The notes beneath the pieces are model-generated. The model did no database searches and had not been told where the DNA came from. It saw only the letters and a program-made list of their open reading frames with translations. A program made the translations under genes and the position numbers. 64,000 nt of DNA from an uncultured Bacilli bacterium (GTDB lineage: Bacteria; Bacillota_I; Bacilli_A; RF39; UBA660): the NCBI GenBank assembly GCA_944364655.1, contig CALVWG010000080.1:2634-66633 (forward strand), given 5' to 3'. The number at the start of each line of letters is the position of its first letter. Position 1 is the stretch's first letter. Of the stretch, positions 2,479-61,473 are shown piece after piece.

Positions 2479-2730
2479 ATTAAATTTTTATAATCAACCT
2501 TATAGAGTACAAATTCTATAATTGATTAATTCCTTTCTATATTATTTTTTGATACAGCTAGTCATAATTATTTGATTTTGATAACACTTTTTAGTTACTA
2601 ATAATATTGCTTTTATAAAACAATTACTATTAAAATTTGTGGTTCTCAAAATTCAAACTTACTATATCATATTTATTCATTAAAATCATTATGTCTTTTT
2701 AAATGATGTTTTAAAAGTTTTAATATTTTT

Positions 2731-17560: not shown

Positions 17561-17926
17561 TTATTCTTCATACGTACATTTTTTTACTTTATTTTCATAT
17601 GTAATTAAAATTCTTTTTGAAGTTGAAATCATTTGATTAGTTTGGGGATCTTTTAAATCGTTGTCTTCAATTAAGCCTTCTTTTAAAATGTCATCAACTA
17701 ATACGGTACATGATCCGCTACTTTGACAACTTTGCTTTAAAGTTTTATTCATATTTAAATCAATGTAAGTACATGCTGCATTTTCTAATGTTTTTTTAAA
17801 ATTTTCATATTGCTCATCTTGTTCTTTTGTATAAGTAGCAGATAAATTACTAACAATAACAGTTCCAATTAAGGCAATTAAACCAATAGTTATAATTATT
17901 TCTATTAATGTAAAACCTTTTTTCAT
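17561..17926 (-). CDS. type IV prepilin-like protein (ComGC/PulG-like pseudopilin) with class III signal
   Basis: MKKGFTLIEIIITIGLIALIGTVIV is the canonical KG|FTLIE prepilin-peptidase site plus hydrophobic helix. Four Cys in the C-terminal domain. Confidence 0.75.
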   Translation of the reverse strand: MKKGFTLIEIIITIGLIALIGTVIVSNLSATYTKEQDEQYENFKKTLENAACTYIDLNMNKTLKQSCQSSGSCTVLVDDILKEGLIEDNDLKDPQTNQMISTSKRILITYENKVKKCTYEE

Positions 17927-31037: not shown

Positions 31038-31128
31038 TCTATTACCTCCGCTATTATAGTGTAGCATGAAAAGCAAATATAAAAAAGTGTTGTATGCAAC
31101 ACTTTATAAAATTTATAAAAATTATTTT

Positions 31129-33072
31129 TTATGGTGTTAAAACAACGCGGAAAGTGCTAGCTCCATAGGCCTGCCCTTCTGTTGGAGAAAATGCAAAGAT
31201 GCCAGCATCTGTTCCATCTGTATATGCATTGCCTCTATTAATCCAAGGTCTACTACTATATAGTAATGCTGCATTATCAAAATGCCAGCTTCCAATTGGA
31301 ATTGTTACTGCCAAATATGTTTTATTATTAAACGGACCCAGTTCGCCGGTAGCATCTCCCAGAATTCTTCGCTGATATTGTTCATCCAATGTTGAATATG
31401 TATAAGTATCATAATATTTTTTATCTGGAAAATCATAGCCCGTTGTTAATTCTATTAAACCTGATGTATCATTTTCTGATGTTGGATAGCCAAAAGTTCC
31501 ATTAAATCCAGAATTTTTCATACTATTTTTTCCACTCATGGGTTTATTGCTTTGATCTAACATAACTCCCATTACATATTCCCAATTACCTCCTGCCATA
31601 TCGTATATTCCTGTTATATTTCCTGTTGTGCTTGCTAATATGCTATCTGGATATGCTATATTACAAGAATAATCTGAGCACCATATATTACACTTTTCAT
31701 TAGTTTGTGTGTAACCACACGTTGGTTCATTATTGGCTGCATATCCTGTTAGATTGGATGAATTATTGTTTATTCTAACGCTTGTTAAACTTCCATATTT
31801 ACTGTGTTGTAAATAGGCTACTGCTCCCCATTCGGTATTCTTCATCATGTGACTATCTAAATTTCTTTTGTAATCATACGATGTATAAAAGGCGTTGGCT
31901 ACTTGAATATTTCGCCATGAGCTTACATTTGGTTTGATTTGAATGGCTTCGCTATTTCTAACGTTATAGTCTGATGTTAATGTTGTTCCCGTTTCAAACT
32001 TACCTACCCAAAATCCTGTACTTGGTATACTTAAAAATGCTGGATGAGTCATGTAATCTCCTACTTGACAGTTTCCTGTCGCACCACTTTCCATTGGTGT
32101 TGTACATTCTCCATCTATTGAATCACTTGTATTATAATCACCAAAGATAATTGGTATTTCATGAACTTTACTTTCATCTATTTCGGTTAAATCTTGATAC
32201 TCACCTAAGTCCCATAATTGATATCGATATTTTGGTATCCACACAAAGTATGATTCTATTGCATCTTCTGGTATTGTTGAGCCTACACTGTAATTAGTTA
32301 TTGAACTTTCATCTTTTAAAATAATTGCATTTGCCCATTCTTTGTTTTCATAGTTATACCATTCTTTTTCTAGATCAGCTCTTTTTACTGTGCCATCATT
32401 GTCGATTGTTACAGCTATTAATGTATCTTTTAATACTGGGTCTGCTCCATTTAATAACGTTTCTTTATAATTATTTGTTTTTGTTGCTGTTGATATAACA
32501 TTTATGCTTCCTTCAAATTTTGTGTTCATGGCTTCATTTCCTGTTGCCTCATCCATCCATAAATAAAAATTGTATGTTTCACTTTCATTTTGTTTTAATT
32601 TTCCACTTGCTATTATTATTGATTCATCTAAATTAGTTATTTGTAATTCTTCTGTTGCGGTATTAAAATTACTTACTGTTCCTAAATTTGTTCCTGTTGC
32701 TGGTTTACTTTCTGTACTTTTATATATGGCATATTTTAACCATTTTTTTTGCATTGTATTTGTTGTTAATGTATTTAATGTTACATTATATGCTGCATCA
32801 TTTGTACATGTATTAGTAATTTTAAATGTATATGGTGTTGCTGATAATCCTTTTTGATCACTTACAGGATAAGTATTATGTAATTCTACTGAAGAAGAAA
32901 GTTCTTCAAATTCAACACTAAAGCATCCCACTTCAACGATATTTTCTCCTCCTGTATAACTTGCTACCCATAAAGCATAACTTTGATAGGCCATTAAGCA
33001 TATTCCTATTCCAACTGTTATTATTGCTAACAATATTTTATATTTTAATTTCATCTTTCTCACCTCATACAT
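31129..33072 (-). CDS. secreted/membrane-anchored protein, paralog 1 of a three-member family with C-terminal FGE/SUMF1-like (C-type-lectin-like fold) domain
   Basis: N-terminal signal/anchor MKLKYKILLAIITVGIGICLMAY and a variable about 200 aa beta-rich module. The about 400 aa conserved block has PNVSSWRNIQVANAF, MMKNTEWGAVAY, ITGIYDMAGGNWEYVMG and RGNAYT, which parallel the FGE-sulfatase family motifs (..SW.dA.a.., ..eaEWeyAar, GlyDMsGNvWEW, RGGSW). Cys-rich. Confidence 0.7.
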   Translation of the reverse strand: MYEVRKMKLKYKILLAIITVGIGICLMAYQSYALWVASYTGGENIVEVGCFSVEFEELSSSVELHNTYPVSDQKGLSATPYTFKITNTCTNDAAYNVTLNTLTTNTMQKKWLKYAIYKSTESKPATGTNLGTVSNFNTATEELQITNLDESIIIASGKLKQNESETYNFYLWMDEATGNEAMNTKFEGSINVISTATKTNNYKETLLNGADPVLKDTLIAVTIDNDGTVKRADLEKEWYNYENKEWANAIILKDESSITNYSVGSTIPEDAIESYFVWIPKYRYQLWDLGEYQDLTEIDESKVHEIPIIFGDYNTSDSIDGECTTPMESGATGNCQVGDYMTHPAFLSIPSTGFWVGKFETGTTLTSDYNVRNSEAIQIKPNVSSWRNIQVANAFYTSYDYKRNLDSHMMKNTEWGAVAYLQHSKYGSLTSVRINNNSSNLTGYAANNEPTCGYTQTNEKCNIWCSDYSCNIAYPDSILASTTGNITGIYDMAGGNWEYVMGVMLDQSNKPMSGKNSMKNSGFNGTFGYPTSENDTSGLIELTTGYDFPDKKYYDTYTYSTLDEQYQRRILGDATGELGPFNNKTYLAVTIPIGSWHFDNAALLYSSRPWINRGNAYTDGTDAGIFAFSPTEGQAYGASTFRVVLTP

Positions 33073-35907: not shown

Positions 35908-37497
35908 TTAAGGGGTTAAAACGGTGCGAAAACCCATAATTAAATCTGCGTGGCCTCTTACAAAGTAAAAACTAAAAATACCTGCTACTGTGCCACTTGT
36001 AAATAAGCTTCCTCTTACAAACCATGGTACTGATAAATTTATAAATGTTGAATTATCAGCATACCAGCTTCCTACTTGTGCAATTTGATTATAATATTCT
36101 GCGGTATTAAATGGCCCCATTTCGCCTGTTGCATCGCCTAATATTCTTCTTGAAAAATCCGTACTGTTTTGACTATAGCTATATACATCATAATACTTTT
36201 TATCTGGCCAATTATAGCCACTAGTTAATTCTGTTAGACCTGATGTATCACTATCACAGTTTGGGCAGCCAAATGTTCCATTAAATCCAGAATTATCTAC
36301 ATTATGTCTTCCACTCAATAAATTTCCATTTCTATCAACAGTTACTCCCATGACATATTCCCATGATCCGCCTGACATATCATAGATTCCTGTTATATTA
36401 TTTGTTGTACTTGCTAATACACTATTTGGATATGCTATATTGCAACTATCATCATTACATTGTTTATTACATTCTTCATTAGTATTTGTCCAACCACATG
36501 TTGGTTCGTTATTGGCTTGATAACCTGTTATATATGATGAATTATTGTTTATTCGAACACTTGTTGCTGAACCATATACACTATGTTGTAAGTAAGCTAC
36601 TGCTCCCCACTCGGTATTCTTCATCATGTGACTATCTAAATTTCTTTTGTAATCATACGATGTATAAAATGCATTAGCTACTTGTATGCCTCGCCATGAA
36701 CTTACATTTGGCTTGATTTGAATTGCTTCGCCATTTCTGACATTGTAATTTGCTGTTAATGTTGTTCCTGTTTCAAATTTGCCGACCCAAAATCCTGTAC
36801 TTGGTATACTTAAGAATGCTGGATGTGTCATGTAGTCACCTATTTTACAATTGCCTGTTGCGCCACTTTCCATGGGTGTTGTACATTCATTTTCTTTATT
36901 ATCACTTGTATTGTAATTGCCAAAGATAATTGGTATTTCATGAACTTTACTCGTATCTATTGTTGTTAAACTATTATATTGACCCAAATCCCATAATTGA
37001 TATCGATATTTTGGGATCCATACAAAATAACTTTCAATTTTATCTTCTGGTATCACTTCGCCAGCTAAATAATCTTCTGTTTCATCTTTTAATATTATGG
37101 CATTGGCCCAATTCTTTTTTTCGTAGTTATACCACTCACTTCCAATGTCGGCTTTTTTGACTGTCCCATCACTATCTATTGTTACTGGTATTAGTTCATC
37201 TTTAATTATTGGATCTGTTCCGTTTAATATTGCTTCACTGTATCCTTTTTTAAAATATAAGGTACATTTTGTTAAACTTGTAGTTACATTTTTGACTATT
37301 GGACTCCACGACTCATAGTCCCATATTATATAAGCACCATTTGTACAACTGCTTTTTGTTTCATCAAAAATATTTTCTCCTTTTGTTGGAATAGTTTTTG
37401 TTTTTTCATTATTTACATATATTGCTAATTTTATATTTTCAAGATTATCTAATTGTTTCTGAGTTTCTTTTTTATTCAATATACCCCCCCAGAACAA
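35908..37497 (-). CDS. paralog 2 of FGE/SUMF1-like-domain family; main ORF lacks signal peptide because of +1 frame offset at G7 tract (phase-variable gene or frameshifted pseudogene)
   Basis: The 529-aa ORF begins at TTG with no signal. The conserved C-terminal about 420 aa is 85-95% nt identical to paralogs 1 and 3. See the upstream signal-peptide fragment. Confidence 0.65.
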   Translation of the reverse strand: MFWGGILNKKETQKQLDNLENIKLAIYVNNEKTKTIPTKGENIFDETKSSCTNGAYIIWDYESWSPIVKNVTTSLTKCTLYFKKGYSEAILNGTDPIIKDELIPVTIDSDGTVKKADIGSEWYNYEKKNWANAIILKDETEDYLAGEVIPEDKIESYFVWIPKYRYQLWDLGQYNSLTTIDTSKVHEIPIIFGNYNTSDNKENECTTPMESGATGNCKIGDYMTHPAFLSIPSTGFWVGKFETGTTLTANYNVRNGEAIQIKPNVSSWRGIQVANAFYTSYDYKRNLDSHMMKNTEWGAVAYLQHSVYGSATSVRINNNSSYITGYQANNEPTCGWTNTNEECNKQCNDDSCNIAYPNSVLASTTNNITGIYDMSGGSWEYVMGVTVDRNGNLLSGRHNVDNSGFNGTFGCPNCDSDTSGLTELTSGYNWPDKKYYDVYSYSQNSTDFSRRILGDATGEMGPFNTAEYYNQIAQVGSWYADNSTFINLSVPWFVRGSLFTSGTVAGIFSFYFVRGHADLIMGFRTVLTP

Positions 37498-37540
37498 CTA
37501 GACTGGTTAGGAGGATTAAAAATGTTATTCTTTTTTTCAT
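37472..37540 (-). CDS. out-of-frame signal-peptide fragment of paralog 2 (MKKRITFLILLTSLVVLGGYIE*)
   Basis: ATG 13 nt downstream of AGGA. Classic n-region plus hydrophobic core. Terminates 8 codons after the G7 tract; removing one G joins it to the 529-aa ORF. Confidence 0.6.
   Translation of the reverse strand: MKKRITFLILLTSLVVLGGYIE
37484..37490. repeat. G7 (C7 on + strand) homopolymeric tract at the signal-peptide/mature-domain junction of paralog 2
   Basis: Only G/C homopolymer longer than 5 noticed in this AT-rich window. A G6 or G9 tract would fuse the upstream signal-peptide ORF in frame. Confidence 0.8.
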
Positions 37541-37595: not shown

Positions 37596-38384
37596 TCAAT
37601 ATTTTAGAGAAGAGAATATTGACTTTGATAACATTTCTTTTTCAGATAAATAATGATTGTTTTGATAAAAAAAGTGTCTAGTTTCTTTTTTTAAAGAAGA
37701 AATATTGTTATCAAAATTGTTTTCGATTTTTTTATAGGGAAAAGAATATAACATTCTTTCTAAATAAAAGCGATTAAGTAAATATTTTTTGTTTTTTAAA
37801 ACGATTAAAAATTGAATTAATAAAACTATACATATAAAATAATTATCAATTGGATAAAATATGTTGTAAATTAAAAAAAGAATAAAAAAGCTAAATGATA
37901 TTAGTTGATAAAAGAAAAATGCTTTTTGATAAGAAAAAAATTTTTCTAAAAATGTATGCATTATTATACTGCCATCTAAAGGAATTATTGGTAATAAATT
38001 GAAAAGAAGAATTATATTGTTATAAGTATTGATTAAGATATAGTCATTTGGTTTAAAATAAATTAAAATTATAGCTAATATAAATTGGATAGTAACTCCT
38101 GAAATAGCAATTATAAACTCTTTATTAATAGAAGAATTTATTGGCTTATCTATTTTAGTTATTCCTCCAAAAGGAAATAGCTCTACTTGAATCACTTTAT
38201 ATTTAAAAAATTTAATAGCTAGGACATGACCTAGTTCATGTAAAAAAACAATTAAAAATATATATATTACATTTTTAAAATAACCGCATAAAAAAGCTAA
38301 AAGAAAAAAGCAATAAGTAGTAATATTTATTTTAAATTTCTTTTTGATATTCTTCATAAGTAATAAACTCGCCATCTTTAACAA
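37596..38384 (-). CDS. spoIVFB: M50 site-2-protease family intramembrane metalloprotease, SpoIVFB-like
   Basis: HELGH (HExxH) in a TM helix and LPIIPLDGS (LDG motif) downstream. Sits in the conserved position before rplU. Confidence 0.6.
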   Translation of the reverse strand: MLKMASLLLMKNIKKKFKINITTYCFFLLAFLCGYFKNVIYIFLIVFLHELGHVLAIKFFKYKVIQVELFPFGGITKIDKPINSSINKEFIIAISGVTIQFILAIILIYFKPNDYILINTYNNIILLFNLLPIIPLDGSIIMHTFLEKFFSYQKAFFFYQLISFSFFILFLIYNIFYPIDNYFICIVLLIQFLIVLKNKKYLLNRFYLERMLYSFPYKKIENNFDNNISSLKKETRHFFYQNNHYLSEKEMLSKSIFSSLKY

Positions 38385-38955
38385 AGGCTAAATAATAGTA
38401 GTTATCAGTGGTATTACCTATAACTGTTCCACTTTCGATATAATCATATAATTTTAAGTTGGTGTTATTAATATTACCATACCAAATATCGATTCCGTTA
38501 ACACCTTGAACGATGTAGACATTGCCATAGCCTTCTTTTTCACCTTGAAAAACAAATAAACCGCTTTCTAAAACTGATATAGCACTATCTTTTGTGGTAC
38601 TAATTTTATAGCCGTCTAAATATTTTTCTTTGTTTAAAATTAAATCGTTATTGGAAACTAATTGCTCAGTTGGTTCAGTAACACTGGGTAAAATATTTCC
38701 AAATGAATTATGGTACCATTCATTAATTTTGGTAAAGGTTAAATTGCTTTGCAAAACTGTATTTTTAAAGTTAGCTAAATTATCTGGACTTAATTTAATA
38801 TAAATTGTACAACCTAAAACTAAAATGACACTTAGTAATACTTTAGTAAATATTTTGCTGATTTTTTTATCGTCTTTTTTTGTTTCTGAAAATTCATTTT
38901 CTCTTCTTTTTTTATGTCTTAATGCGATCATTTCTAGTTCATCCATATTATTCAC
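38332..38955 (-). CDS. spoIVFA: degenerate LytM/M23-domain membrane protein, SpoIVFA-like
   Basis: N-terminal TM. C-terminal GYGNVYIVQ...IDIWYGNI...LAFVKDG aligns to the M23 GYGN.V.I.H / ..Y.HL / HLHFE motifs with the catalytic His replaced, as in SpoIVFA/SpoIIQ. Upstream of the M50 gene as in Bacillus. Confidence 0.55.
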   Translation of the reverse strand: MNNMDELEMIALRHKKRRENEFSETKKDDKKISKIFTKVLLSVILVLGCTIYIKLSPDNLANFKNTVLQSNLTFTKINEWYHNSFGNILPSVTEPTEQLVSNNDLILNKEKYLDGYKISTTKDSAISVLESGLFVFQGEKEGYGNVYIVQGVNGIDIWYGNINNTNLKLYDYIESGTVIGNTTDNYYYLAFVKDGEFITYEEYQKEI

Positions 38956-43282: not shown

Positions 43283-43646
43283 GTTTTCCTTGTTTAAAAA
43301 TTATTATTGTAAATAAACTATTCCAAATTAAACTACTCACTATTAAATAATAATTAATATTTTGATTAATAAGCATTAAAATGAATAAATATAAAAATGT
43401 GTTAAGAAAATTTTTTAAAAGAAAATATTTTAAATTATATTTATGATGCCAAGATACATTTAAAATAAATAAAATAATTATTAATAGTAAATGTATAAAA
43501 TTAAACGGATATACAATTGCTGAGATAAATAAAGCCGCAAATAAAAGGAATGGCAAAGTATTATAATTACTAAATGAAAGCAATGTTAAATAAAAATAGA
43601 TTGGCAAAAACTCATTCATAATTGACAGCCTTTCTAACAACAACAT
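43263..43646 (-). CDS. mreD: rod-shape protein MreD-like small polytopic membrane protein
   Basis: 127 aa with about 4 TM segments, immediately after mreC. Confidence 0.45.
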   Translation of the reverse strand: MLLLERLSIMNEFLPIYFYLTLLSFSNYNTLPFLLFAALFISAIVYPFNFIHLLLIIILFILNVSWHHKYNLKYFLLKNFLNTFLYLFILMLINQNINYYLIVSSLIWNSLFTIIIFKQGKLNFSKK

Positions 43647-44277
43647 AGTTTAAATTAAATAAGTCGGCGGCTGGTTCAACAACAACTTTTTGCTCTAATT
43701 CATCTTTGGTCACTTCAACTACTTTCCCGACTAATATTTCACCTGGGATATTAGTAAAATTTGATGTATAAACTAAACTATCTTTAGCGATTTCTTCTTT
43801 ACTCACTATATTACTAATTATAAGTTGATTGCCGCTAGCTTTTAATATGCCATAACTATTTTGAACTTTTACAGAAAAAGATATACTAGTATTAGTAAGT
43901 AATTTAACCTCACTAGAGTTAGCTAAAACTTTAGTTACTTCGCCTACTAATCCTTGTTCATTTACAACTACATCGCCTTTTTTTATCCCGTCATTTTGAC
44001 CTTTTAAAATAGTTACTTCGTCAAAAAAAACATATGGATCATGAATTATTACTTTGGTAATAATTCCATCGTTTTTAAATGAATCTATTAAATTATTTTG
44101 TTCTAGTAACTCATTATATTCATATTTAATTCTTTCATATTCATCAGTTAATACTAGATTTTTAGTTAAATTAAAATCTTTATTAATTAAATAAGAGCAA
44201 ATAAAATCTTTTCCATAAAAGAAAAATAATAACAATAAAAATAATGATACATAAATAAAATATTTTTTCATTTCCAA
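43612..44277 (-). CDS. mreC: cell-shape-determining protein MreC
   Basis: N-terminal TM, coiled coil, then beta-rich domain GILKASGNQLIISNIV...VYTSNFTNIPGEILVGKVVEV typical of MreC. Confidence 0.7.
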   Translation of the reverse strand: MEMKKYFIYVSLFLLLLFFFYGKDFICSYLINKDFNLTKNLVLTDEYERIKYEYNELLEQNNLIDSFKNDGIITKVIIHDPYVFFDEVTILKGQNDGIKKGDVVVNEQGLVGEVTKVLANSSEVKLLTNTSISFSVKVQNSYGILKASGNQLIISNIVSKEEIAKDSLVYTSNFTNIPGEILVGKVVEVTKDELEQKVVVEPAADLFNLNYVVVRKAVNYE

Positions 44278-44957
44278 ATATCCTTTCTATTTTCTAAAAA
44301 GCTAAAATATTTATCACGGCCGATTATAACATGATCTAATAGGGATATGCCGACCATTTCTCCTATCTCTTTTATTTTTTTGGTAAATAGTTCATCAGCT
44401 AAACTAGGTAAAACATTACCACTTGGATGATTATGAAGACAAATTATTCTAACAGCATTATTTAACATCGCCTCTTTAAATATATCTCTTGGATGAACAA
44501 GACTTTGATTAGCTGTACCTATAAATAGCTTTTTCTTATTTATAACTTCATTTTTAGAATTTAAAAATAAAGTGTAAAATATTTCTTGATCAGAGTTAAA
44601 AAACAAGAAACGAAAATAATTATAAACATCTTTACTTTCTTTAATTTGGACTAATTCTTTAATATTATTACATTGAAATCTTTTTCCCAATTCTAAACAA
44701 GATAAAATAGTTATAGCTTTCACTTTACCTACACCATTTATTTTTTTTAAATTTTCTAAACGAGCATTTTTTAAATCATATAAACTACCAAATTGATTAA
44801 TTATTGTTCTACTTAAATCTATGGCTGAAACATTTTTGGTTCCAGTTCTTAAAATAATTGCTAATAGTTCAATGTCAGTTAATGATTCAAATCCATATTT
44901 TAGTGCTTTTTCACGAGGCTTTTCTTCACTAATTAAATCTTTAATTAAATAACTCAT
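44268..44957 (-). CDS. radC: RadC-like JAB/MPN domain protein
   Basis: HNHPSGN JAMM motif. Helix-hairpin-helix-like N-terminus. 229 aa. Confidence 0.85.
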   Translation of the reverse strand: MSYLIKDLISEEKPREKALKYGFESLTDIELLAIILRTGTKNVSAIDLSRTIINQFGSLYDLKNARLENLKKINGVGKVKAITILSCLELGKRFQCNNIKELVQIKESKDVYNYFRFLFFNSDQEIFYTLFLNSKNEVINKKKLFIGTANQSLVHPRDIFKEAMLNNAVRIICLHNHPSGNVLPSLADELFTKKIKEIGEMVGISLLDHVIIGRDKYFSFLENRKDIWK

Positions 44958-45382
44958 ATTTTAGCTACCTTTGTTAAAATTTGTTTATTTATTTCTAGGA
45001 TCACTTGATCATCAGTAGCCCGCTCTAAAAGCATATTATATTTATAAATTAAATCATTACTAGAAACACTAACATTTAATGATTTTTGATAATAATGAAT
45101 ATTTTTGGAAGTTAAAACTTTAGCGATTTTGGTAATTCCTTCTTCAGAAGTTGCTGCTCCGACTAAAACACGATATAAATCACCATCTTTTAAAATAACG
45201 GCATCAGAAAATTTTTCTTTATTTGCTAAAGCATTTTCATACGATGAATATGCTCCTGTTTGAAAGACTGTAAGCTTACTATCTTCTGCATTTTTTAAAG
45301 GTTTTAAATAAAATAATGTAATAAAAGATAAAAAAGCTCCAATACATATTGCAAGTAAAATAATGATAATTTTTTTGGACAT
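44954..45382 (-). CDS. SPOR-domain membrane protein
   Basis: N-terminal TM. TVFQTGAYSSYENA...YRVLVGAATSEEGITKIAKVL fits the SPOR repeat pattern (F.VQ.GAF....A......YRV.VG.F). Confidence 0.5.
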   Translation of the reverse strand: MSKKIIIILLAICIGAFLSFITLFYLKPLKNAEDSKLTVFQTGAYSSYENALANKEKFSDAVILKDGDLYRVLVGAATSEEGITKIAKVLTSKNIHYYQKSLNVSVSSNDLIYKYNMLLERATDDQVILEINKQILTKVAKI

Positions 45383-54106: not shown

Positions 54107-54132
54107 AAAAAAATCTTTCAAAGAAAGATTTT
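54107..54132 (-). terminator. rho-independent terminator ending the Tad-locus transcript
   Basis: AATCTTTC-aaa-GAAAGATT perfect 8-bp stem with A7 on the + strand (T7 on the minus strand) between the pilin gene and ruvA. Confidence 0.55.
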
Positions 54133-54745
54133 AAACTAATCCAATATAGTAAAATTCTAAATCATCAATATCATTTTCATCGCTTCCGGTAATTGCTGGT
54201 ACAATAACTCTAATGGATTTATAATTTGAACATGATCGAAAAGAATTATTTAATGTTCCTTTTTCTGATTCATCTAATATTCCATTATTATTGGTATCGC
54301 AATTATAATTACAAATGCCGTCACCATTACTATCAATATTTAATTCATATGAGCAATTATCTGCGCTAGATTTTGAAATCTTAATATTTTCAAAATCATA
54401 ATAAGCCTCATCATTACCATTTGTTTCAATCGGCCAAGTCTCATTACCATAAGTAATACTATCTTTATTAACCACCATTGTTGAAACAAAATTTTCAAAT
54501 ATAAAATTTATTGAACTTGTGTTTGCATTGGTAGAAATTGATACATCATTTAATTTGTTATTTAATAAGTCTTCTTGAACCGTTTTTATAATAGTAGCTC
54601 GATTTACTTGATTTTCTTTTAAATATGAAGCATGTTTATTTTCGTATTCTATGTCAATTAATAGACTGAAAAGAAAAAGCATTACTATAGCAATTAAACC
54701 AACACTGATAATAACTTCAACTAATGTCATACCTTTTTTATTCAT
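54131..54745 (-). CDS. type IV prepilin-like protein (class III signal G|MTLVE) with Asp/Asn-rich Ca-binding-like loops
   Basis: MNKKGMTLVEVIISVGLIAIVMLFLF is a canonical type IVa-type prepilin N-terminus. DSNGDGICNYNCDTNNNGILDESE resembles DxDxDG Ca-binding motifs. Four Cys. Confidence 0.7.
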   Translation of the reverse strand: MNKKGMTLVEVIISVGLIAIVMLFLFSLLIDIEYENKHASYLKENQVNRATIIKTVQEDLLNNKLNDVSISTNANTSSINFIFENFVSTMVVNKDSITYGNETWPIETNGNDEAYYDFENIKISKSSADNCSYELNIDSNGDGICNYNCDTNNNGILDESEKGTLNNSFRSCSNYKSIRVIVPAITGSDENDIDDLEFYYIGLV

Positions 54746-54779: not shown

Positions 54780-56660
54780 TTATGGCGTTAGAATTAGGCG
54801 AAAACTTACCCACATGTCCATAGTTCCATAAGAGTTACCAACTCCAAATAATCCAGCACCTAAGCCACTAGTATAAGCAGCACCTCGTAAAATAAACGGA
54901 AAATTTGTCCAAATAAAATAACTTTCATCACTATACCAGCTACTTATACTTCTATTTTGAGACAGAAATTGAACTAAATCAAACGGGCCAATCTCACCAA
55001 CGGCATCACCTAATATTCGTCTTGAAAAATCGTTTTGATTAATAGAAAAATTATAAATATCATAATATTTTTTATTCAGAAAATCATAATCAGCTATTAT
55101 TTGGTCATTTTCATCTAGCATAACTCCCATTACATATTCCCATGCACCACCACTCATATCATATATGCCTGTAATATTTCCAGTTGTACTGGCTAATACA
55201 CTATTGGGATAAGCTGTATTACAACTATTATCATTACAATAGCGATTACATTCTTCGTTTGTTCCTGTATATCCACATGTTGGTTCATTGTTCGCGGCAT
55301 ATCCGGTTATATAATCCGAATTATTATTTATTCTAACACTTGTGGCACTTCCATAGGCACTATGTTGTAAATATGCTACTGCTCCCCACTCGGTATTCTT
55401 CATCATATGACTATCTAAATTTCTTTTATAATCATATGATGTGTAAAAGGCATTAGCTACTTGTATACTTCGCCATGAACTTACATTTGGTTTGATTTGA
55501 ATAGCATCTCCATTTCTGACATTGTAATCTGAAGTTAATGTTGTACCTGTTTCAAATTTGCCGACCCAAAATCCGGTACTTGGGATACTTAGGAAAGCTG
55601 GATGGGTCATGTAGTCTCCTATTTGACAGGAGCCTGTTGCTCCACTTTCCATTGGTGTTGTACATTCATTTGCATTGGCATCATTTGTGTTGTAATCGCC
55701 AAAGATTATGGGTATTTCATGAACTTTACTTTCATCTATTTCAGTTAAATCTTCATATTGTCCTAAATCCCATAATTGATAACGGTACTTTGGTATCCAA
55801 ACAAAGTATGATTCAATTGCTTCTTCTGGTATTACTGAATCTACTTCATAATTGCTTGCTGTACTTTCATCTTTTAAAATAATTGCATTTGCCCATTCTT
55901 TATTGGCATAACTGTACCATGGTTTGGTTGTGTCGGCTTTTTTTACTGTTCCATCACTTTCTATTGTGACGGCTATTAATTCATCTTTGATTATTGGATC
56001 TGCTCCATTTAATATTGTCTCTTGATATTTATTTGTATTAATACTTTGACTTTCATGAACTAGTCCTGTTCCTTCTATTTTATATGATACTACTTTATTG
56101 GTATCTTCTTCTGTTACTACACTTTCATCTATTATAATACTTATACTATATACCTCTGTACTGTTTACTTCCATTTCTGCTTCACTTATAAGTGTTCCAT
56201 CTGTTAATTCACTTAATGTTTTTCCATTTTCATAACGACTTACTATTTCTAATGTTTCGCCTACTTGATGTCTTAACACTACTTTTACTTTTGTATTTTC
56301 TAATGTGTTTTCTTCATTGGCTATTAACTTTATTGTGTAACTTCCTTTTAAACTTCCTGTATTTCTAACACTTAATTTATAATCACATTCTCCTAAATAT
56401 AAACTATTTTCTTCTACTGTCATGGGTGTAAAACAAACACTTTTTTCTGTACTTGTTATCGTCCCAGATGAATTTTCATATGTAAAAACTAAGTCTCCTG
56501 CTTCTACAACTTGATTTTTACTATTTCCATCTATTTTAAAAAACATTGCATATGATAAACTTAAGACTACTATTGTTAAACATATTATTATATAACTTGC
56601 TAGCTTTGTTTCTCTTTTAAAAATATTTTTAAAACTTAAGTTATTTTGCATATATTTCAC
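54780..56660 (-). CDS. paralog 3 of FGE/SUMF1-like-domain family, N-terminal signal-anchor plus variable beta-rich module; appended to Tad pilus operon
   Basis: 626 aa. KLASYIIICLTIVVLSLSYAMF anchor. Conserved C-terminal block near-identical to paralogs 1 and 2 (same SWR/EWGAVAY/GIYDMSGGAWEYVMG motifs). Confidence 0.7.
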   Translation of the reverse strand: MKYMQNNLSFKNIFKRETKLASYIIICLTIVVLSLSYAMFFKIDGNSKNQVVEAGDLVFTYENSSGTITSTEKSVCFTPMTVEENSLYLGECDYKLSVRNTGSLKGSYTIKLIANEENTLENTKVKVVLRHQVGETLEIVSRYENGKTLSELTDGTLISEAEMEVNSTEVYSISIIIDESVVTEEDTNKVVSYKIEGTGLVHESQSINTNKYQETILNGADPIIKDELIAVTIESDGTVKKADTTKPWYSYANKEWANAIILKDESTASNYEVDSVIPEEAIESYFVWIPKYRYQLWDLGQYEDLTEIDESKVHEIPIIFGDYNTNDANANECTTPMESGATGSCQIGDYMTHPAFLSIPSTGFWVGKFETGTTLTSDYNVRNGDAIQIKPNVSSWRSIQVANAFYTSYDYKRNLDSHMMKNTEWGAVAYLQHSAYGSATSVRINNNSDYITGYAANNEPTCGYTGTNEECNRYCNDNSCNTAYPNSVLASTTGNITGIYDMSGGAWEYVMGVMLDENDQIIADYDFLNKKYYDIYNFSINQNDFSRRILGDAVGEIGPFDLVQFLSQNRSISSWYSDESYFIWTNFPFILRGAAYTSGLGAGLFGVGNSYGTMDMWVSFRLILTP

Positions 56661-56705: not shown

Positions 56706-57407
56706 TTAGCCTATAAAAAAGTCTATTACAACTGGGGCTAGAATAACTATCAAAATTATTGGAATAAAAAATATGACTGATAAAATACTGATTTTTGTTG
56801 GTAATTTACCAATTTGACTTTTTATTTCTAATAGTCTTTTATCTCTTAAAAAATCTAATTGATTATTTAAAGATTCTTCAATATTATTACCAAATACACT
56901 TGATTGAACAATATTTAATAAAGCATTATTAATCGTGTCGCTTGGAATTCTTTGCTTCATATCAGTAATAGCTTCTGGAAAACTTTTGCCTAAACTCATT
57001 TCTTGTAATGATTTTTGAAATTCTTCGGAAAGCTCTGATTGAATATTTTTAGAAGTAATACGTAAAGATAAAGTTAGATTACGACCGCTTTCTAAAGTCA
57101 AAGACAAAACTTCAAAAAAGAATATAGCTTCTTCTTCTAATTTTTTTTCTCTTTTTTTTATTGGATAATCTAAAACGATATATTCACTTAAATAATGAAA
57201 AATTACGACAGCAATTGGGGCAATAATATAGCCGTTTTTATTAAAAGCTAAAAATAAGAAAAAGATAGCTAAACTAATTAATAAACGATAATTCAATAAA
57301 TCAATTGCTTTATAATGACAATGCAATCCTAGTAATTTTATTTTTTTATCAATTCTTTTAATTGATTTTTCTGAATAAATTTTTCTGACTAAACTTTTTT
57401 CATTCAT
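56706..57407 (-). CDS. tadC: Tad pilus assembly inner-membrane protein TadC (T2SS-F-like)
   Basis: 233 aa, polytopic. Follows tadB with a stop/start overlap. Confidence 0.6.
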   Translation of the reverse strand: MNEKSLVRKIYSEKSIKRIDKKIKLLGLHCHYKAIDLLNYRLLISLAIFFLFLAFNKNGYIIAPIAVVIFHYLSEYIVLDYPIKKREKKLEEEAIFFFEVLSLTLESGRNLTLSLRITSKNIQSELSEEFQKSLQEMSLGKSFPEAITDMKQRIPSDTINNALLNIVQSSVFGNNIEESLNNQLDFLRDKRLLEIKSQIGKLPTKISILSVIFFIPIILIVILAPVVIDFFIG

Positions 57408-58414
57408 TAAATCTTCACCTTTAATACTTTCTTAATAACCATAATATATAATGTATATAATAAAATTACTAAAACTAAAATCATTTTGCCAAGCGTTGTT
57501 GTAAATATTGGGGCAAAATAACTTGGATTTAATATATATATTGCCAAAATAAATAATAATGGTAAAAAACATAAAGTTCTAAATACAAAAATTGAAGCAC
57601 TTGTTAAGCTTTGCATTTCTTGTTTTAGTTTCTTTTTATCAAAAAATGATCTTTCAATAGTACCAAAAACTTTAACTATATTTCCGCCTGTTTTATTTAA
57701 AAGGGTTAAAGAACTTGTAATGTATTTAGCGTCATCTAATTTAACTCGGTTATAAAAACGATCAAAAACAACTTCAATACTTAAACCGTATGTCATATCT
57801 AAATAAATTTTTTTAAATTCATCGCTAATTGGGCCTTCTAGTTCTTCTTTAACAATTTGGACAGCTTGCATTATATTTCTTCCAGATTTAAAGCTGTTAT
57901 TCATAATTATAATTGCTTTTAATAAATCTTCTTCAACTTTCTTTCTTTTCTTTTGATATTCGATATTAATAAATATATCCGGAATAAAAAAGCCTATTAA
58001 AAAAGATATTAAAAAACTCATTAAAGTCATTTCCATTACTTGGAACATAAATGTTAAAATATTAAACAGAATAAATGAGAAGCCAACAATAAATTTTATA
58101 GAAATGTAATCCATGCCACTTATACTATCTTTATCTTCATATTTAATGTGTTTTTCATATTTTAAACCATACTTTTTTAAAAAAACACTTTTACTTAATA
58201 AAGAAGATAATTTATGAACAAATTTCCATAAATAATCAGTAATTGTTTCAAAGAAAGATTTTTCTTTATCATGGATACTTATCAAAGCAAAATCTTCAAA
58301 TCTTTTTTCAAGTTTAATTATTCTTTTTTGTCTGATTAAGTAAATAATAAGCACGATAAGAATTAGGATTACAATACTTTGGGTTATTAAAATTTGCCAA
58401 GAATAATTTTCCAT
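57407..58414 (-). CDS. tadB: Tad pilus assembly inner-membrane protein TadB (T2SS-F-like)
   Basis: 335 aa with N- and C-terminal TM clusters and a cytoplasmic GspF-like domain. Follows tadA. Confidence 0.65.
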   Translation of the reverse strand: MENYSWQILITQSIVILILIVLIIYLIRQKRIIKLEKRFEDFALISIHDKEKSFFETITDYLWKFVHKLSSLLSKSVFLKKYGLKYEKHIKYEDKDSISGMDYISIKFIVGFSFILFNILTFMFQVMEMTLMSFLISFLIGFFIPDIFINIEYQKKRKKVEEDLLKAIIIMNNSFKSGRNIMQAVQIVKEELEGPISDEFKKIYLDMTYGLSIEVVFDRFYNRVKLDDAKYITSSLTLLNKTGGNIVKVFGTIERSFFDKKKLKQEMQSLTSASIFVFRTLCFLPLLFILAIYILNPSYFAPIFTTTLGKMILVLVILLYTLYIMVIKKVLKVKI

Positions 58415-58430
58415 GTTTATCTTCCTTTCT

Positions 58431-59774
58431 TTAATTTTTTTTGTTAAACATAAAGTCGATATCGGTTATACCTTTAGTTGCAATTTTATTATATACTTTT
58501 GGAACTTTATCGTTGTACAAAAAGTATTCACCATCAACTTCACCATTTTTGGTTAAACCATTTTGCTTAAAAGCAAAAATTTCTCTTAATTCTAATTCTC
58601 CCTCATGAAAGTTTTCTAATTCGGCAATAGACGTTATTTTTCTTTTGCCATCACTCATTCTATCAATATTAACTACAAGATCAATAGCACTAGCAATGTA
58701 TTCACGAATGGCTTTAATTGGAATATCCATTCCACTCATTAAAACCATTGTTTCTAGTCGATTCAAAGCATCTTTTGGTCCGTTTGCATGAAGTGTTGTT
58801 AAAGATCCTTCGTGACCGGTATTCATAGCTTGTAACATATCAAAAGCTTCTTTGCCACGAACTTCACCAACGATAATGCGATCTGGACGCATACGAAGAG
58901 CATTTATTACTAAATCTCTAATGGTAATTTCCCCTTCATTATCATAATTGGTAACTCTAGTTTCTAGTGATATTACGTGTTCTTTTTCTAATTTTAATTC
59001 GGCAGCATCCTCTATAGTAATAATTCTTTCATTATCTGGAATAAAACTGCTCAAAATATTTAAAAGAGTTGTTTTACCAGAACCAGTACCACCGCAAACA
59101 ATAATGTTACATTTTCCTTTTACTGCTGCTTCCAAAAACGTTGCCATATATGGGGTCATTGAACCAATTCTAATCATATCGTCAGCACTAGTCATTTCAC
59201 TTCTAAATTTTCTGATTGTTATAACTGGTCCTTTTGTTGATAAAGGAGGAATAACAGCGTTTATTCTTGAACCATCTTTTAACCTGGAATCGACCATAGG
59301 ATTAGTTGCGTCAATTGTTCTTCCCATTGGTCCAATCATTCTTTCAATTGTTCTGATGATATGTTCATCGTTAATAAATGATACACTTTCATCTTTAATG
59401 ATTTGGCCATCTATTTCAATATAAATTTCTTTGGGACTATTAACCATTATTTCAGTAATGTTTTTATCTTCCAATAATTCTGTTAAAGGACCATAGCCAT
59501 TAATTTCATTATCAATTAAATTATATAAATGACTTCTTTCCAAATTAGATAAATCATAACCTTCTATTGTTTTATCGATTTCGTCATTAATAAATTGATT
59601 TAATAATTTATCTTCAGGAATTTCTTTATCAATTAAATTTTCAACTATTTTAGTTCTTAATTCATCTAAAAGTTTTTTATCAGGAAAGATTTCATAATCA
59701 GAAACATAATGAACTTTATTAGGTTTTCTTTCAATATTAAACGCTTCAACTAAGCTCTTCTTCATGTTCGTCAT
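58431..59774 (-). CDS. tadA: Tad/Flp pilus assembly ATPase CpaF/TadA (VirB11-like secretion ATPase)
   Basis: Walker [17 protein letters not shown], Asp box, Walker B and His box of type II/IV secretion NTPases. 447 aa. Confidence 0.9.
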
Positions 59775-60534
59775 CTTCCTTTCCTAAAATATCTGTGGCA
59801 ATTTTCATCATGACTGTGTAATCTTTATTAAAAATTGAGGCTGCTTTATTTTGAAGGGTTATTATCTCACCATTCATAACATAATTATCAATATTTTTAA
59901 TGTAAAATTCTTCGGATATGATGTAATCTACATTAGCTTTTAATATGTTTTTTATATCAAAAAGACTAAAATATTTTTTCATTGGTTCACGAGAATTATT
60001 TAATATTATATTATAATTGTTTTTGTTTAAATCTCTAAAAATCGAAAGTAAACTTTTCATGTTTTTAAGATCTAACGGATCATTTGTCATGATAAATAAA
60101 ATATTTTTTACTTCATCTAAGATAACTAGATTTGTTTCATTTAAATTATGATTAGTATCTATTAAAACAACATCATAAAAATATTCGGCTTTATCAATTG
60201 CTATTTCAATGTATTTTGAATCTATTTTTGATGCTTGTCGAGGATCTTTAGGACTAGCTAATACGTCAATGTTTTCACTATATTTAGTTATGTAATCATT
60301 AAAATTATGAAAGCGATTGTTATTATAATCATCAACTAAATTATAAATCGTTTTATCAAAGGGTTTATTAATCGCTAAAGAAATTCCGCCACTGGATAAA
60401 TCTAAATCCATTATGAGTACTTTTTTACCAATACTTTGATAAATGCCAGCAAGATTTAAGGTAAATATTGTTTTACCAACACCACCTTTACCAGAAAATA
60501 TACATATGCTTTTTCCTGTTTTCTTTTTCATCAC
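59746..60534 (-). CDS. tadZ: CpaE/TadZ-like ParA/MinD-family ATPase (no receiver domain)
   Basis: Deviant Walker A FSGKGGVGKTIFTLNLA. 262 aa. Confidence 0.7.
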   Translation of the reverse strand: MMKKKTGKSICIFSGKGGVGKTIFTLNLAGIYQSIGKKVLIMDLDLSSGGISLAINKPFDKTIYNLVDDYNNNRFHNFNDYITKYSENIDVLASPKDPRQASKIDSKYIEIAIDKAEYFYDVVLIDTNHNLNETNLVILDEVKNILFIMTNDPLDLKNMKSLLSIFRDLNKNNYNIILNNSREPMKKYFSLFDIKNILKANVDYIISEEFYIKNIDNYVMNGEIITLQNKAASIFNKDYTVMMKIATDILGKEDDEHEEELS

Positions 60535-60914
60535 TAAGTCTCCTTTTTTTCTATTATGATATTGCCATCTTTTATTTTTCCAATTCGGTTTACATTTATT
60601 TCATAATCATTAATATTGATTAGTTTGCCAAATATGGAATCTATTTTAGATTTAACTAAAACTGTTACTGTATCATCTTCAACTACAATTTCATAGTTTT
60701 CTTTAGGGATCATATTATATGAAAGAGTTTTTTCTAATGAATCAGTACCATTATTCAAAAAAAACTCTTTTATACTTTCATCGACAATTCCTTTGTATTT
60801 TTGATAACTATGCTCAATAATTCCTACATCAACTATTATGGCAGTTAAAATCAAAAAAACAGGAATTAAAATGATAAACATAATTAAAGTTTGACCTTTA
60901 TTATTCATAACCAA
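60534..60914 (-). CDS. TadE/TadF-like pseudopilin
   Basis: MVMNNKGQTLIMFIILIPVFLILTAIIVDVG is a TadE-family N-terminus (processing site after G, hydrophobic helix). Confidence 0.6.
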   Translation of the reverse strand: MVMNNKGQTLIMFIILIPVFLILTAIIVDVGIIEHSYQKYKGIVDESIKEFFLNNGTDSLEKTLSYNMIPKENYEIVVEDDTVTVLVKSKIDSIFGKLININDYEINVNRIGKIKDGNIIIEKKET

Positions 60915-61251
60915 TCACTCTTTTTACTTCAACTGGATAAGGATTTTCAAATATGATATTTAACCCTGGCGTAATTATTTCGATGTTTTTTGTTAAATAA
61001 AAGGTTACTTTTTCATTATCATCATTTTGAATCTCTAACTCTACATCTTTATCATTTATTTTGACGTCATTTAAAATATCGTTATATGTTTTTTTATTTC
61101 GATATAAATCAATAACGTCACTAAGTTCATTTTCTAATTCATTTCTTATATAAATAATTTTACCAATATCAATAATTGCCAGCACCATAAATACAAAAAT
61201 TGGCAAAATTATTACAAATTCGACTAATGCTTGACCCCTTTTTTTATTCAT
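60901..61251 (-). CDS. tadE: TadE-like pseudopilin
   Basis: MNKKRGQALVEFVIILPIFVFMVLAIIDIG matches the TadE motif G.ALVEF..L.P. Confidence 0.65.
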   Translation of the reverse strand: MNKKRGQALVEFVIILPIFVFMVLAIIDIGKIIYIRNELENELSDVIDLYRNKKTYNDILNDVKINDKDVELEIQNDDNEKVTFYLTKNIEIITPGLNIIFENPYPVEVKRVIGYE

Positions 61252-61257
61252 TAAACG

Positions 61258-61473
61258 TCATTCCTTTTGTAATTCTAATTCTTCTTCACTCATACACGTA
61301 GCTTCACCAGGTTTATCTCCCTCAACATAAACTTTATCAGCTATACTACAAGATGATTTAGTAATCGCGTCTTTTAAATAACCGCCAAAATAAGATACTA
61401 TACTTATAGTAATAACACTAATTAAAGCAATTATTAAAACATATTCAACTAACGCTTGACCTCTATTCCCCAT
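61258..61473 (-). CDS. flp: Flp-family type IVb pilin
   Basis: 71 aa. MGNRG|QALVEYVLIIALISV is the Flp motif (G/xxxVEY plus hydrophobic helix). First gene of the locus. Confidence 0.7.
   Translation of the reverse strand: MGNRGQALVEYVLIIALISVITISIVSYFGGYLKDAITKSSCSIADKVYVEGDKPGEATCMSEEELELQKE

Follow-up and report, generated by a model that had tools for sequence, protein, structure and literature searches.

Three minus-strand genes in the 64-kb window (the whole stretch of DNA that was analysed), referred to here as A, B and C, are probably members of one very large and unnamed protein family of small-genome, uncultured Bacilli from animal guts. Its proteins would be secreted or exposed at the surface and bind ligands, with an adhesin- or lectin-like character, and the family is diversified in various ways. 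We regard it as a contingency family that is new and has no annotation, and whose products are variable, lectin-like surface proteins. A family search returned more than 7000 matches, which fall into 3406 clusters at 50% identity, and cluster look-ups gave no name for family members. Nor did we find a description of the family in the literature on Ca. Ventrenecus or on poly-G phase variation in such MAGs.

The long open reading frames (ORFs) of the three paralogs lie exactly where a sequence-only reading had placed them, those of A and C at the coordinates in Table 1 and that of B at 35908..37497, and a phmmer search of the 64-kb window with the C-terminal domain as the query matched these three genes only. 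A 32-mer quoted in that reading has copies at 31817, 36596 and 55375 with 0-1 mismatch, where shuffles expect 0. The FGE-type motif series that it named is present as well, and the terminal motif, FR(V/T/L)(V/I)LTP, closes all three. The degree of similarity, however, had been overestimated. Instead of the claimed 85-95% DNA identity over 1.2 kb, self-BLASTN yielded 79-82% (A/B, 79.0% over 1139 nt; A/C, 81.6% over 936 nt; B/C, 81.7% over 896 nt), and values of 88-90% are confined to short sub-windows. The shared block had also been described as C-terminal, yet it stops short of the 3' end, and the final ~200 nt of A, B and C are only 50-59% identical. The poly-G frameshift of B, the hypervariable tail with its connection to diversity-generating retroelements (DGRs), the TasA-like heads and the Tad pilus context of C were absent from that earlier account.

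In the product of gene A, an N-terminal hydrophobic helix ending SYA-LW leads into a head predicted to be a TasA-like beta-sandwich; the conserved linker comes next, then the C-type-lectin (CLec) core, and the variable tail closes the protein. Gene C follows the same order, with a helix ending SYA-MF and a CLec core without an insert of ~31 aa. No LPXTG motif, lipobox or wall-binding domain was found in A, B or C. A sigma-70 promoter scan of the region gave 60 sites against 54.5 expected, which is uninformative in such AT-rich DNA. A 233-aa gene and a CPBP protease gene upstream of A were considered as partners and rejected, being conserved in the sister strain only.

Table 1 Features of the three paralogs and their surroundings in the window.
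Feature	Position	Strand	Remarks
Terminator-like hairpin and T-run	31084..31105	-	Directly 3' of the A stop codon
Gene A	31129..33072	-	647 aa, or 641 aa like the relatives if Met-7 (nt 33054) is the start
A hypervariable tail	31132..31335	-	Last 68 aa; equivalent to the variable region of DGR targets
A conserved linker and CLec core	31336..32460	-	aa 205-579; block common to B and C; pLDDT >90 throughout
A strain-variable segment	31840..32259	-	420 nt, 87.6% identical to the positional ortholog; adjoining 480 nt, 99.8%
A head module	32461..33072	-	aa 1-204; signal/anchor helix and predicted TasA/bundling-pilin-like beta-sandwich
Gene B, full extent	35908..37539	-	True start ATG 37539
B hypervariable tail	35911..36114	-	This end fails to align with the positional counterpart of B in L081
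Poly-G tract, G7 on the coding strand (C7 on the + strand)	37484..37490	-	In signal-peptide codons; splits the signal peptide from the body
Type-IV-pilin-like gene	54131..54745	-	N_methyl, Pfam E 1.3e-5; 34 nt downstream of C
Gene C	54780..56660	-	626 aa; architecture as in A
C hypervariable tail	54783..54986	-	Tail comparison with A and B; match to DGR columns
Tad/Flp-type pilus operon	56706..61473	-	By Pfam; directly upstream of C

Gene conversion had been proposed from the mutual identity of the three copies. The conclusion, taken as segmental exchange, stands, but the argument is weak: across the shared block of A, B and C, dS is 0.57-1.1 with dN of 0.05-0.24, so that their similarity mostly reflects purifying selection and not recent conversion. 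The exchange is seen in the comparison of strains. Between the window and locus L081 of a 97%-related strain, the flanks are 95-100% identical over 19 kb, whereas B drops to 82% against its ortholog and then becomes unalignable. Within A, dS between the strains is 0.63 over codons 261-400, which make up most of the variable segment, versus 0.03 over codons 401-560 downstream. Additionally, the head of A is found on different bodies in locus L082, and the cores group by genome and not by head type. Segments have been replaced and modules shuffled between paralogs. Donor copies ~100% identical to the replaced segments of A or B were not found in the contigs available; L081 and L082 come from one sample and may be separate genomes.

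Gene B is longer than its ORF, which had been taken as the complete gene. The ATG in Table 1 opens a 22-codon signal-peptide frame (MKKRITFLILLTSLVVLGGYIE*), and the 524-codon body follows in the +1 frame, the G7 frameshift leaving the signal peptide outside the frame of the ORF. Some orthologs of B keep the signal peptide in frame, among them P0017 (MKKRITFLILLTSLIVLGGGISSKKETQ), whose contig position was not located. G7 is out of frame in the assembly, and G6 or G9 would restore the frame. The tract is the sole G/C run of at least 6 in the 64-kb window, and A and C carry no repeat tract. L081 has G10 between flanks identical to those of the window's G7, and three paralogs in sample ERZ1643251 carry G10 as well. 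The four B-type tracts of the species (G7, G10, G10, G10) all share one OFF frame, which is odd for free switching.

The same arrangement recurs throughout the family. Almost every poly-G run in 80 related loci lies at the 5' end of a family gene. The 944 kb of related loci contain 33 runs of at least 7, and every one of them (33/33) has G on the family coding strand; 20 occupy the spacers of TTGAC-Gn-TATAAT promoters, and at least 10 lie in 5' coding regions, both in frame and out of frame. Between the -35 and -10 boxes of relatives the tracts measure G9-G13. B itself has a 5' homopolymer of at least 7 whose length is polymorphic between close strains with identical flanks, as in contingency genes, and its tract is likely to be a slipped-strand on/off switch. 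From the poly-G architecture and the length polymorphism, both directly observed, we infer actual switching.

Simple-sequence contingency loci are well known from the poly-G genes of Campylobacter and Helicobacter, the promoter-spacer poly-G/C of Neisseria porA and opc, and the promoter poly-A of Mycoplasma hyorhinis vlp. The present family resembles them in the placement of the homopolymer, which in B occupies the 5' coding region and in relatives falls precisely in the gap from the -35 to the -10 box, in its strain-polymorphic tract length, in being a multigene surface-protein family and in residing in a low-GC, small-genome, host-associated organism. It differs from them in its host, uncultured Bacilli of the gut that possess genes for a cell wall and for sporulation, and in the protein family concerned. 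Moreover, it is also served by DGRs (in relatives) and by recombination, and switching here is putative.

B could instead be a dead pseudogene or an assembly error, with the three copies being old paralogs that stay similar through purifying selection alone. Consistent with this, B is out of frame in both the window and the related strain, the dS values among A, B and C given above come with dN/dS of 0.06-0.4, and homopolymer lengths are error-prone in metagenome assemblies. We nevertheless consider this explanation unlikely. The 524-codon body of B is intact, and the tract differs between strains amid identical flanks. Homologous tracts of G7-G13, in ON and OFF frames, recur at the equivalent site in no fewer than 18 independent assemblies produced by different assemblers, and poly-G is otherwise absent in these 27% GC genomes. 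Importantly, dS changes sharply within both A and B, and selection cannot be the cause of such discontinuities.

The AF2 models of A and C (pLDDT 89.6 and 91.6, respectively) predict an FGE-subclass C-type-lectin fold for their domain, and the nearest structure to the predicted models is a DGR variable protein. Sequence identity between TaqVP and the window proteins is only 17-18%. The FGE/SUMF1 fold suggested earlier is thus supported by structure but not by sequence profile, the test that the sequence-only reading had set for itself. The Pfam scan gave no match for A or B, and for C an FGE-sulfatase match (E 0.044, 13.9 bits) below the cutoff of 23.3; single-sequence scans of all three against NCBIfam and Pfam gave nothing significant. 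Sub-threshold FGE-sulfatase matches occur in 24 of 69 diverse relatives, the best with an E of 4.9e-4. Searching PDB sequences with a single sequence or with the 69-member profile produced marginal matches only (5vf4, E 0.29; PvdO, E 0.86).

With DGR target proteins the family shares a predicted CLec fold whose variable region is C-terminal. The tails of A, B and C share 38-46% amino-acid identity, with the scaffold and the core conserved. In loci L073 and L033 of relatives, genes for RVT_1, bAvd and MutS_I (RVT_1 E 1.5e-15 and bAvd E 1.4e-17 in L073) adjoin VR/TR pairs, whose mismatches fall at TR adenines in 16/18 and 15/15 cases, respectively; RT and Avd neighbour family members in L009 and L011 as well. 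The DGR-variable codons of L073, whose DGR target has a type-IV-pilin N-terminus, fall on the highest-entropy tail columns of the family (3.44 vs 1.54 bits, p 4.6e-8).

Given the DGR variable protein as nearest structure, the adjoining RT and Avd and adenine mutagenesis in relatives, and tails that vary at DGR-type positions, A, B and C might themselves be DGR targets whose tails are varied by a retroelement elsewhere in the genome. We hold this to be improbable. No DGR or TR-like repeat was detected in the 64-kb window, L081 or L082 by self-BLASTN, by BLASTN of the tails against the locus, or by tblastn with the RT, Avd and TR of L073; the tblastn queries found neither an RT nor an Avd gene in any of the three. 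(A crude RT regular expression was dropped, as it stayed blank even for loci with RT present.) Since the low DNA identity of the three tails extends to synonymous and scaffold sites, one TR would be unable to serve all three. Furthermore, two strains share 98% identity in the tail of A, and the replacement that affected the tail of B took in ~450 nt of adjoining coding sequence as well, a pattern indicative of recombination, not retrohoming. Compared with the DGR CLec variable proteins TaqVP (5VF4), TvpA (2Y3C) and Mtd (1YU0), the window genes have no nearby TR, RT or Avd, differ through paralogy and recombination instead of adenine mutagenesis, and have, in addition, display modules at the N-terminus and a WYxYxxKxWANA linker that is conserved.

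It is more doubtful still that the proteins are catalytic FGE-superfamily enzymes (formylglycine-generating, EgtB/OvoA-like or PvdO-like) acting on a secreted substrate. No Cys of the domain is invariant or 90%-conserved among 69 aligned members, and the conserved catalytic Cys pair (Cu site) expected near the C-terminus appears to be absent. The Pfam gathering score is reached by none, nearby sulfatase or DinB partner genes are absent, and the domain is hypervariable in its C-terminal part, where it corresponds to the DGR variable region. In the same way, the family differs from FGE/SUMF1 (PF03781) and from the non-catalytic users PvdO and PorK/GldK in that all its matches stay below the gathering score, in the apparent lack of a catalytic Cys pair and in the hypervariable C-terminus; PorK and GldK, in addition, are Bacteroidota T9SS lipoproteins, while the window proteins are from Bacilli. 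The non-catalytic binding role that had been put forward is consistent with the evidence, namely no invariant or near-invariant Cys and a hypervariable equivalent of the DGR variable region.

Least credible of all is that they are phage- or prophage-derived receptor-binding (tail-fibre) proteins like TaqVP and Mtd, which are phage DGR variable proteins (PMC6328139), because the neighbours are housekeeping genes (obg, pflAB, rplU-prp-rpmA, ruvAB, tad), the N-termini are Sec-type or pilin-type, and relatives are absent among 2.9 million viral contigs.

Returning to the family of surface lectin-like proteins that we favour, the variable domain is borne by exchangeable heads. These had been said to differ completely, which is true of B versus A and C but not of A versus C: the latter two align end to end (BLASTP E 2e-5, 21% identity), share a fold and are, judging from the models, distant homologs with a TasA-like beta-sandwich. 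The head of B consists of a short signal-anchor and a small domain. N_methyl pilin heads are found in 11 of 69 members, and one head is camelysin/TasA-like. Relative to TasA/camelysin (Peptidase_M73) and the archaeal bundling pilin AbpA, neither the A head nor the C head gives a Pfam match of its own, Peptidase_M73 included. TasA, unlike A and C, has no C-terminal lectin domain, and the window contains no SipW or major subunit (no S26/SipW gene among the window ORFs scanned).

Gene C lies in a pilus context. The Tad operon upstream comprises a Flp-like pilin, two TadE-like proteins, a CpaE/ParA-like ATPase, a CpaF/T2SSE ATPase and two T2SSF proteins (TadB/TadC), and C starts 45 nt past the last T2SSF gene. 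The order tadC, C, pilin-like gene is kept in locus L083. C is probably co-expressed with the Tad pilus, to which it is linked by gene position only, the protein itself having no Pfam match to Flp_Fap, TadE or N_methyl. A linkage of C to Tad beyond close relatives was rejected, as P0298 and P0289, homologs of the head only, have unrelated surroundings; the 80 loci selected with B contain no tad genes. Bacteroides type V pili carry DGR-diversified pilus tip adhesins (bioRxiv 10.1101/2024.11.15.621889). The likeness is that gut bacteria mount a hypervariable binding domain of the CLec type on a module for incorporation into filaments, type-IV-pilin N-termini being present in the aforementioned 11 of 69 family members, the L073 DGR target among them. 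The differences are that the modules here are type IV, Tad or TasA-like, that the phylum is another one and that the window copies are not DGR-linked.

We propose a protein of four modules. An exchangeable N-terminal unit (helix plus TasA-like domain in A and C, signal-anchor in B, often type-IV pilin in relatives) would provide export and display, followed by the conserved linker and the conserved, presumably non-catalytic C-type-lectin domain of FGE/DGR-variable type; the last ~68 residues would form the hypervariable surface, presumably the ligand-binding site. The repertoire would arise by four routes. There are many paralogs per genome, and their tails are all different. Segment replacement between paralogs and module shuffling add to these, and slipped-strand poly-G tracts would switch expression, B being OFF at G7 in the window and relatives bearing G9-G13 in their promoters. 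Finally, a genuine DGR mutates the tail in some relatives, as seen in L073 and L033, with none in the window. We infer that the proteins serve ligand recognition, or attachment to the host or to other microbes.

Ca. Ventrenecus and its relatives, Bacilli that are often labelled 'Tenericutes', are uncultured and widespread in the guts of chickens, rabbits, mice and humans. The copy of the NCBI taxonomy gives no lineage for Ca. Ventrenecus below the domain Bacteria. The family is a testable candidate for surface recognition and for immune or phage evasion in these organisms. It extends DGR-type C-type-lectin scaffolds to many proteins not linked to DGRs, with the same binding-site positions being diversified by different genetic mechanisms, and it could be defined as a new domain family for use in annotation pipelines. 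Tentatively, and with somewhat less than even confidence, we suggest that it constitutes an unrecognised superfamily of hypervariable surface lectins (>3400 clusters at 50%) that may be the main means of host or partner recognition in uncultured gut Bacilli of ~1.3 Mb, combining one conserved DGR-type C-type-lectin scaffold, interchangeable filament modules of the type IV pilin, TasA-like and signal-anchor kinds, and three independent diversifiers, namely poly-G switches in promoters and signal peptides, cassette recombination and DGR retrohoming. If true, the superfamily would amount to the bacterial counterpart of a combinatorial repertoire of receptors.

The three paralogs encoding secreted lectin-like proteins, genes A, B and C, lie exactly where the sequence-only reading had placed them (see the table below). 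Self-BLASTN of the window returned precisely three repeats, corresponding to these genes, with identities of 79.0% over 1139 nt (A/B), 81.6% over 936 nt (A/C) and 81.7% over 896 nt (B/C). The common block is real, but the 85-95% similarity claimed for it was overstated, so that the observation is confirmed only in part. The 32-mer quoted as its example recurs at 31817, 36596 and 55375 with 0-1 mismatch, versus none in shuffles, and its coding strand specifies MMKNTEWGAVA. Searching by phmmer with the domain revealed no fourth family copy in the window, which has a GC content of 27% and carries mostly housekeeping genes, nearly all on one strand.

Features of the window: family genes and the pilus-related genes next to C
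Feature	Position	Strand	Length	Content
Gene A	31129..33072	minus	647 aa	
Gene B, listed ORF	35908..37497	minus	529-aa ORF	
Gene C	54780..56660	minus	626 aa	
Tad/Flp-type pilus operon, complete-looking	56706-61473	minus		Flp_Fap (Flp-like pilin), two TadE
Same operon, remaining genes	56706-61473	minus		ParA/CpaE-like, T2SSE (CpaF-like), two T2SSF (TadB/TadC-like)
Type-IV-pilin-like gene	54131-54745	minus	204 aa	N_methyl motif; 34 nt after C

Alignment of the A, B and C proteins resolved four parts: a variable head of 100-215 aa, a conserved linker (ILNGxDP...WYxYxxKxWANAIILKDE), a core and a tail. Amino-acid identity in the core is 88-91% at A codons 261-400 and 71-77% at A codons 401-560. The tail, comprising the last ~68 residues past GDATGExGPF, keeps the scaffold SW..D....PW..RG....G..AG.F.F......FR.xLTP and is only 38-46% identical; the shared block therefore ends before the 3' end of the gene. 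The heads had been described as completely different. This holds for the short head of B, which is unrelated to the other two, but the A and C heads are distant homologs end to end (BLASTP E 2e-5, 21% identity), both starting with a hydrophobic helix that closes on S-Y-A and is followed by an aromatic residue.

We then consider the fold. The expected profile match to the formylglycine-generating enzyme (FGE)/SUMF1 superfamily did not materialize, as neither Pfam nor NCBIfam gave anything significant for A, B or C; C reached E 0.044 (13.9 bits, cutoff 23.3) against the Pfam FGE-sulfatase profile. A 69-sequence family profile retrieved only 5vf4 (E 0.29) and PvdO (E 0.86) from the PDB sequences, and 24 of 69 relatives scanned singly showed sub-threshold FGE-sulfatase matches (best E 4.9e-4). 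Where sequence profiles failed, structure comparison bore out the proposed FGE-type C-type-lectin (CLec) fold, scoring 20.8 (237-243 residues) for TaqVP, 12.4 for PvdO, 12.1-12.2 for TvpA, 10.8-11.0 for Mtd, 10.6-10.8 for EgtB, 10.5-10.8 for pFGE/SUMF2 and 10.3-11.1 for PorK. Foldseek agreed (5vf4, E 4e-9). TaqVP is the variable protein of a diversity-generating retroelement (DGR) in a Thermus aquaticus prophage (5VF4; PMC6328139); the nearest solved relative of the domain is thus a binding protein of hypervariable sequence rather than an enzyme. None of the cysteines is invariant or 90% conserved among the 69 aligned family members, and a Cu-binding Cys pair, the hallmark of FGE, is therefore not a family feature.

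DGRs occur within the family itself. In two related loci, L073 (closed genome OZ006981) and L033, the 3' end of a member with a prepilin N-terminus is repeated over 142 nt about 210 nt downstream of the gene, and the mismatches between the two copies fall at adenines of the downstream one in 16/18 and 15/15 cases, respectively. Past the repeat, a MutS_I-like protein, bAvd (E 1.4e-17) and a reverse transcriptase (RVT_1, E 1.5e-15) are encoded, which makes this arrangement a canonical DGR; the same RT and Avd genes are found in L009 and L011. When all family tails were aligned, the DGR-mutable codons coincided with the most variable columns of the family, with a mean entropy of 3.44 bits versus 1.54 bits (Mann-Whitney p 4.6e-8), and A, B and C vary at these positions too. 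The window and the sister-strain contigs both lack a template repeat (TR), RT and Avd, and the A/B/C tails, at 50-59% nucleotide identity, diverge at scaffold and synonymous positions as well, so that a single DGR did not produce them. L009 (6277-6972) and L011 (1-660) additionally carry Asn-rich, TR-like versions of the family tail at ~300-nt spacing. They precede a family gene with the RT and Avd genes downstream, and where they differ from the tail of that gene the mismatches show no adenine specificity. In L009, a G8 run starts the ORF after the family gene, which matches the MutS_I-like ORF of L073 (9732).

Ongoing gene conversion had been proposed from the similarity of the copies. For the trio it is not demonstrated by that reading's own criterion: with dS of 0.57-1.1, dN of 0.05-0.24 and omega of 0.06-0.4 in the cores, the similarity reflects purifying selection. 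Segmental exchange does appear against the sister strain (~97% related), a comparison that we regard as decisive for recombination in the family genes. Over 19 kb, the two strains are 95-100% identical in 300-nt windows, family genes excepted. B falls to 82-83% in the core and 53-61% in its final 600 nt, of which BLASTN could not align the last ~450. In A, a 420-nt segment (31840..32259) at 87.6% abuts 480 nt at 99.8%, and dS is 0.63 at codons 261-400 versus 0.03-0.13 elsewhere. This segment is nearer to A2 (90.0%), a paralog on another contig from the sister strain's sample (L082) in which the A head (92-100% identical) is joined to a different core and tail, than to its own positional ortholog. 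The window cores are mutually 0.79-0.83 identical, and against cores that follow A-type heads elsewhere the A core reaches only 0.51-0.64; across MAGs, the median is 0.68 for cores behind unlike heads within one genome versus 0.58 for cores that share a head type but come from different genomes, with tails at 0.38-0.44 everywhere. Given the strain breakpoints and genome-tracking cores, segmental exchange and module shuffling are well supported, while no exact donor of the replaced segments was found. The A head occurs a second time in L082 (6012-7466), on the unrelated C-terminal body, without Pfam match, of a 484-aa protein (X484; 92-100% nucleotide identity to the A head over codons 1-160), which is module shuffling reaching outside the CLec family.

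Gene B carries a further, putative source of variation. Its listed ORF, which encodes no signal peptide, begins with a TTG that immediately follows a stop codon. The ATG at 37539, 42 bases upstream, opens MKKRITFLILLTSLVVLGG, enters a G7 tract and terminates at YIE-stop; with one G fewer, or two more, it would be fused to the 524-codon body of B, and B orthologs read ...LTSLIVLGGGISSKKETQ... (P0017). This tract (C7/G7, 37484-37490) is the sole G or C run of at least 6 in the 64 kb. It is polymorphic: the sister-strain locus L081 (ENA ERZ1643251 NODE_413) has G10 between identical bases, the strain flanks being 95-100% identical. Three contigs of ERZ1643251 share the upstream region, ribosome-binding site, signal-peptide cassette and G10, and then continue into different bodies. 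The four B-type tracts of the species (37484-37490; L081 2884-2893; L087; L088) are G7, G10, G10 and G10, all of length 1 modulo 3, and such a shared OFF frame would not be expected of a locus that switches freely.

Across 944 kb of related loci we counted 33 G/C runs of at least 7, all of them G on the coding strand of a family gene. Twenty are of promoter type: a TTGAC(A/T/G) hexamer directly precedes the run, TATAAT or TAAAAT follows 8 nt later, and the spacers measure 19-22 nt. At least 10 are intragenic, in the first codons, and include in-frame (L010, L063, L073) as well as out-of-frame cases; several of the other runs sit at contig ends. Simple-sequence contingency loci are built in this way; known examples have poly-G in the promoter spacer (Neisseria porA), intragenic poly-G (Campylobacter) or promoter poly-A (Mycoplasma vlp). 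The tracts thus suggest, from sequence, that these genes are switched on and off. Among the promoter-type loci, L051 (489-8981) holds five consecutive tandem family genes, each with its own TTGACTTA-G9/10-...TATAAT promoter, which would allow independent, combinatorial switching. Promoter-type leaders (L002, L004, L015, L016, L023, L025, L029, L036) also contain a conserved hairpin and T-run (e.g. ATTATCATAGgaaaCTATGGTAATttttttt) about 10-60 nt past the poly-G and, further down, the palindrome ATGACATAATAAGTCAT; together, these could act as an attenuator or operator on top of the poly-G switch.

C starts 45 nt past the last gene of the Tad/Flp operon and is probably co-expressed with this pilus. 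A related locus, L083, repeats the order T2SSF - C - (...) - 204-aa gene - ruvA - ruvB; there (1270-3516) the C ortholog in this position is a truncated protein of 292 aa, with an IS110-family transposase gene just downstream. More distant head-only homologs show no tad linkage, and the window showed no gene for a prepilin peptidase. B is flanked by a spoIVFB-like M50 protease gene on one side and rplU-prp-rpmA on the other; A follows genes for a CPBP protease and a 233-aa membrane protein and precedes a terminator-like hairpin and pflB-pflA-obg. The window also encodes, on the minus strand, a secreted-looking protein with a collagen triple-helix repeat and then a right-handed beta-helix region (6671-7609), likely another surface protein, and a second small type-IV-pilin-like protein (17561-17926). 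The N-terminal coding DNA of the latter resembles the 204-aa pilin gene (80% over 59 nt); immediately upstream, and sharing 4 nt with it, is a minus-strand gene (17923-18969) that encodes a lysyl-phosphatidylglycerol-synthase TM domain.

The family has more than 7000 matches among database proteins, all "hypothetical", and takes in 3406 clusters at 50% identity (E 1e-3 or better); no source that we looked up names any member. Giant members with 11-13 tandem CLec domain copies are found among the clusters (P0129, 3713 aa; P0242, 4516 aa), 11 of 69 diverse members have a type-IV-pilin N-terminus (N_methyl, best E 4.3e-9), and some carry a Laminin_G_3 domain between linker and core. The matching genomes, some labelled "Tenericutes", are uncultured animal-gut Bacilli, including Candidatus Ventrenecus (chicken), rabbit, mouse and human MAGs and one closed 1.31 Mb genome; no relatives were found in viral contigs. 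Copy number per genome is high, with MAG BRZ_EG__bin5 accounting for 10 of the 80 loci listed. Genes for SpoIIP (12306-13223), MreC (43612-44277), a SPOR-domain protein (44954-45382) and M50/M23 SpoIVF-like proteins (37596-38955) indicate that the window organism has a cell wall and is a Firmicute, possibly a sporulating one, and not a mollicute, despite the label on several related MAGs.

Taken together, the interpretation in the sequence-only reading finds support in part: it had the fold and the general idea right and missed the key mechanisms. The analysis establishes the fold, the pattern of variability, the poly-G tract with its length polymorphism, the mosaic breakpoints and the presence of DGRs in relatives. 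On the most economical reading, the family provides a repertoire of binding proteins that are non-catalytic and displayed at the surface. In this repertoire, a constant CLec scaffold would present a hypervariable C-terminal face, through which the proteins would bind ligands; the N-terminal module, TasA-like, pilin-like or signal-anchor, would set the mode of export and mounting at the presumed surface location, where heads may be incorporated into filaments. Paralog choice, poly-G slippage and recombination would vary expression and specificity, with DGR retrohoming as an additional source of variation in some lineages. The family is new and unannotated, is of known kinds, namely CLec variable proteins and contingency gene families, and is found in an unstudied yet widespread gut lineage.
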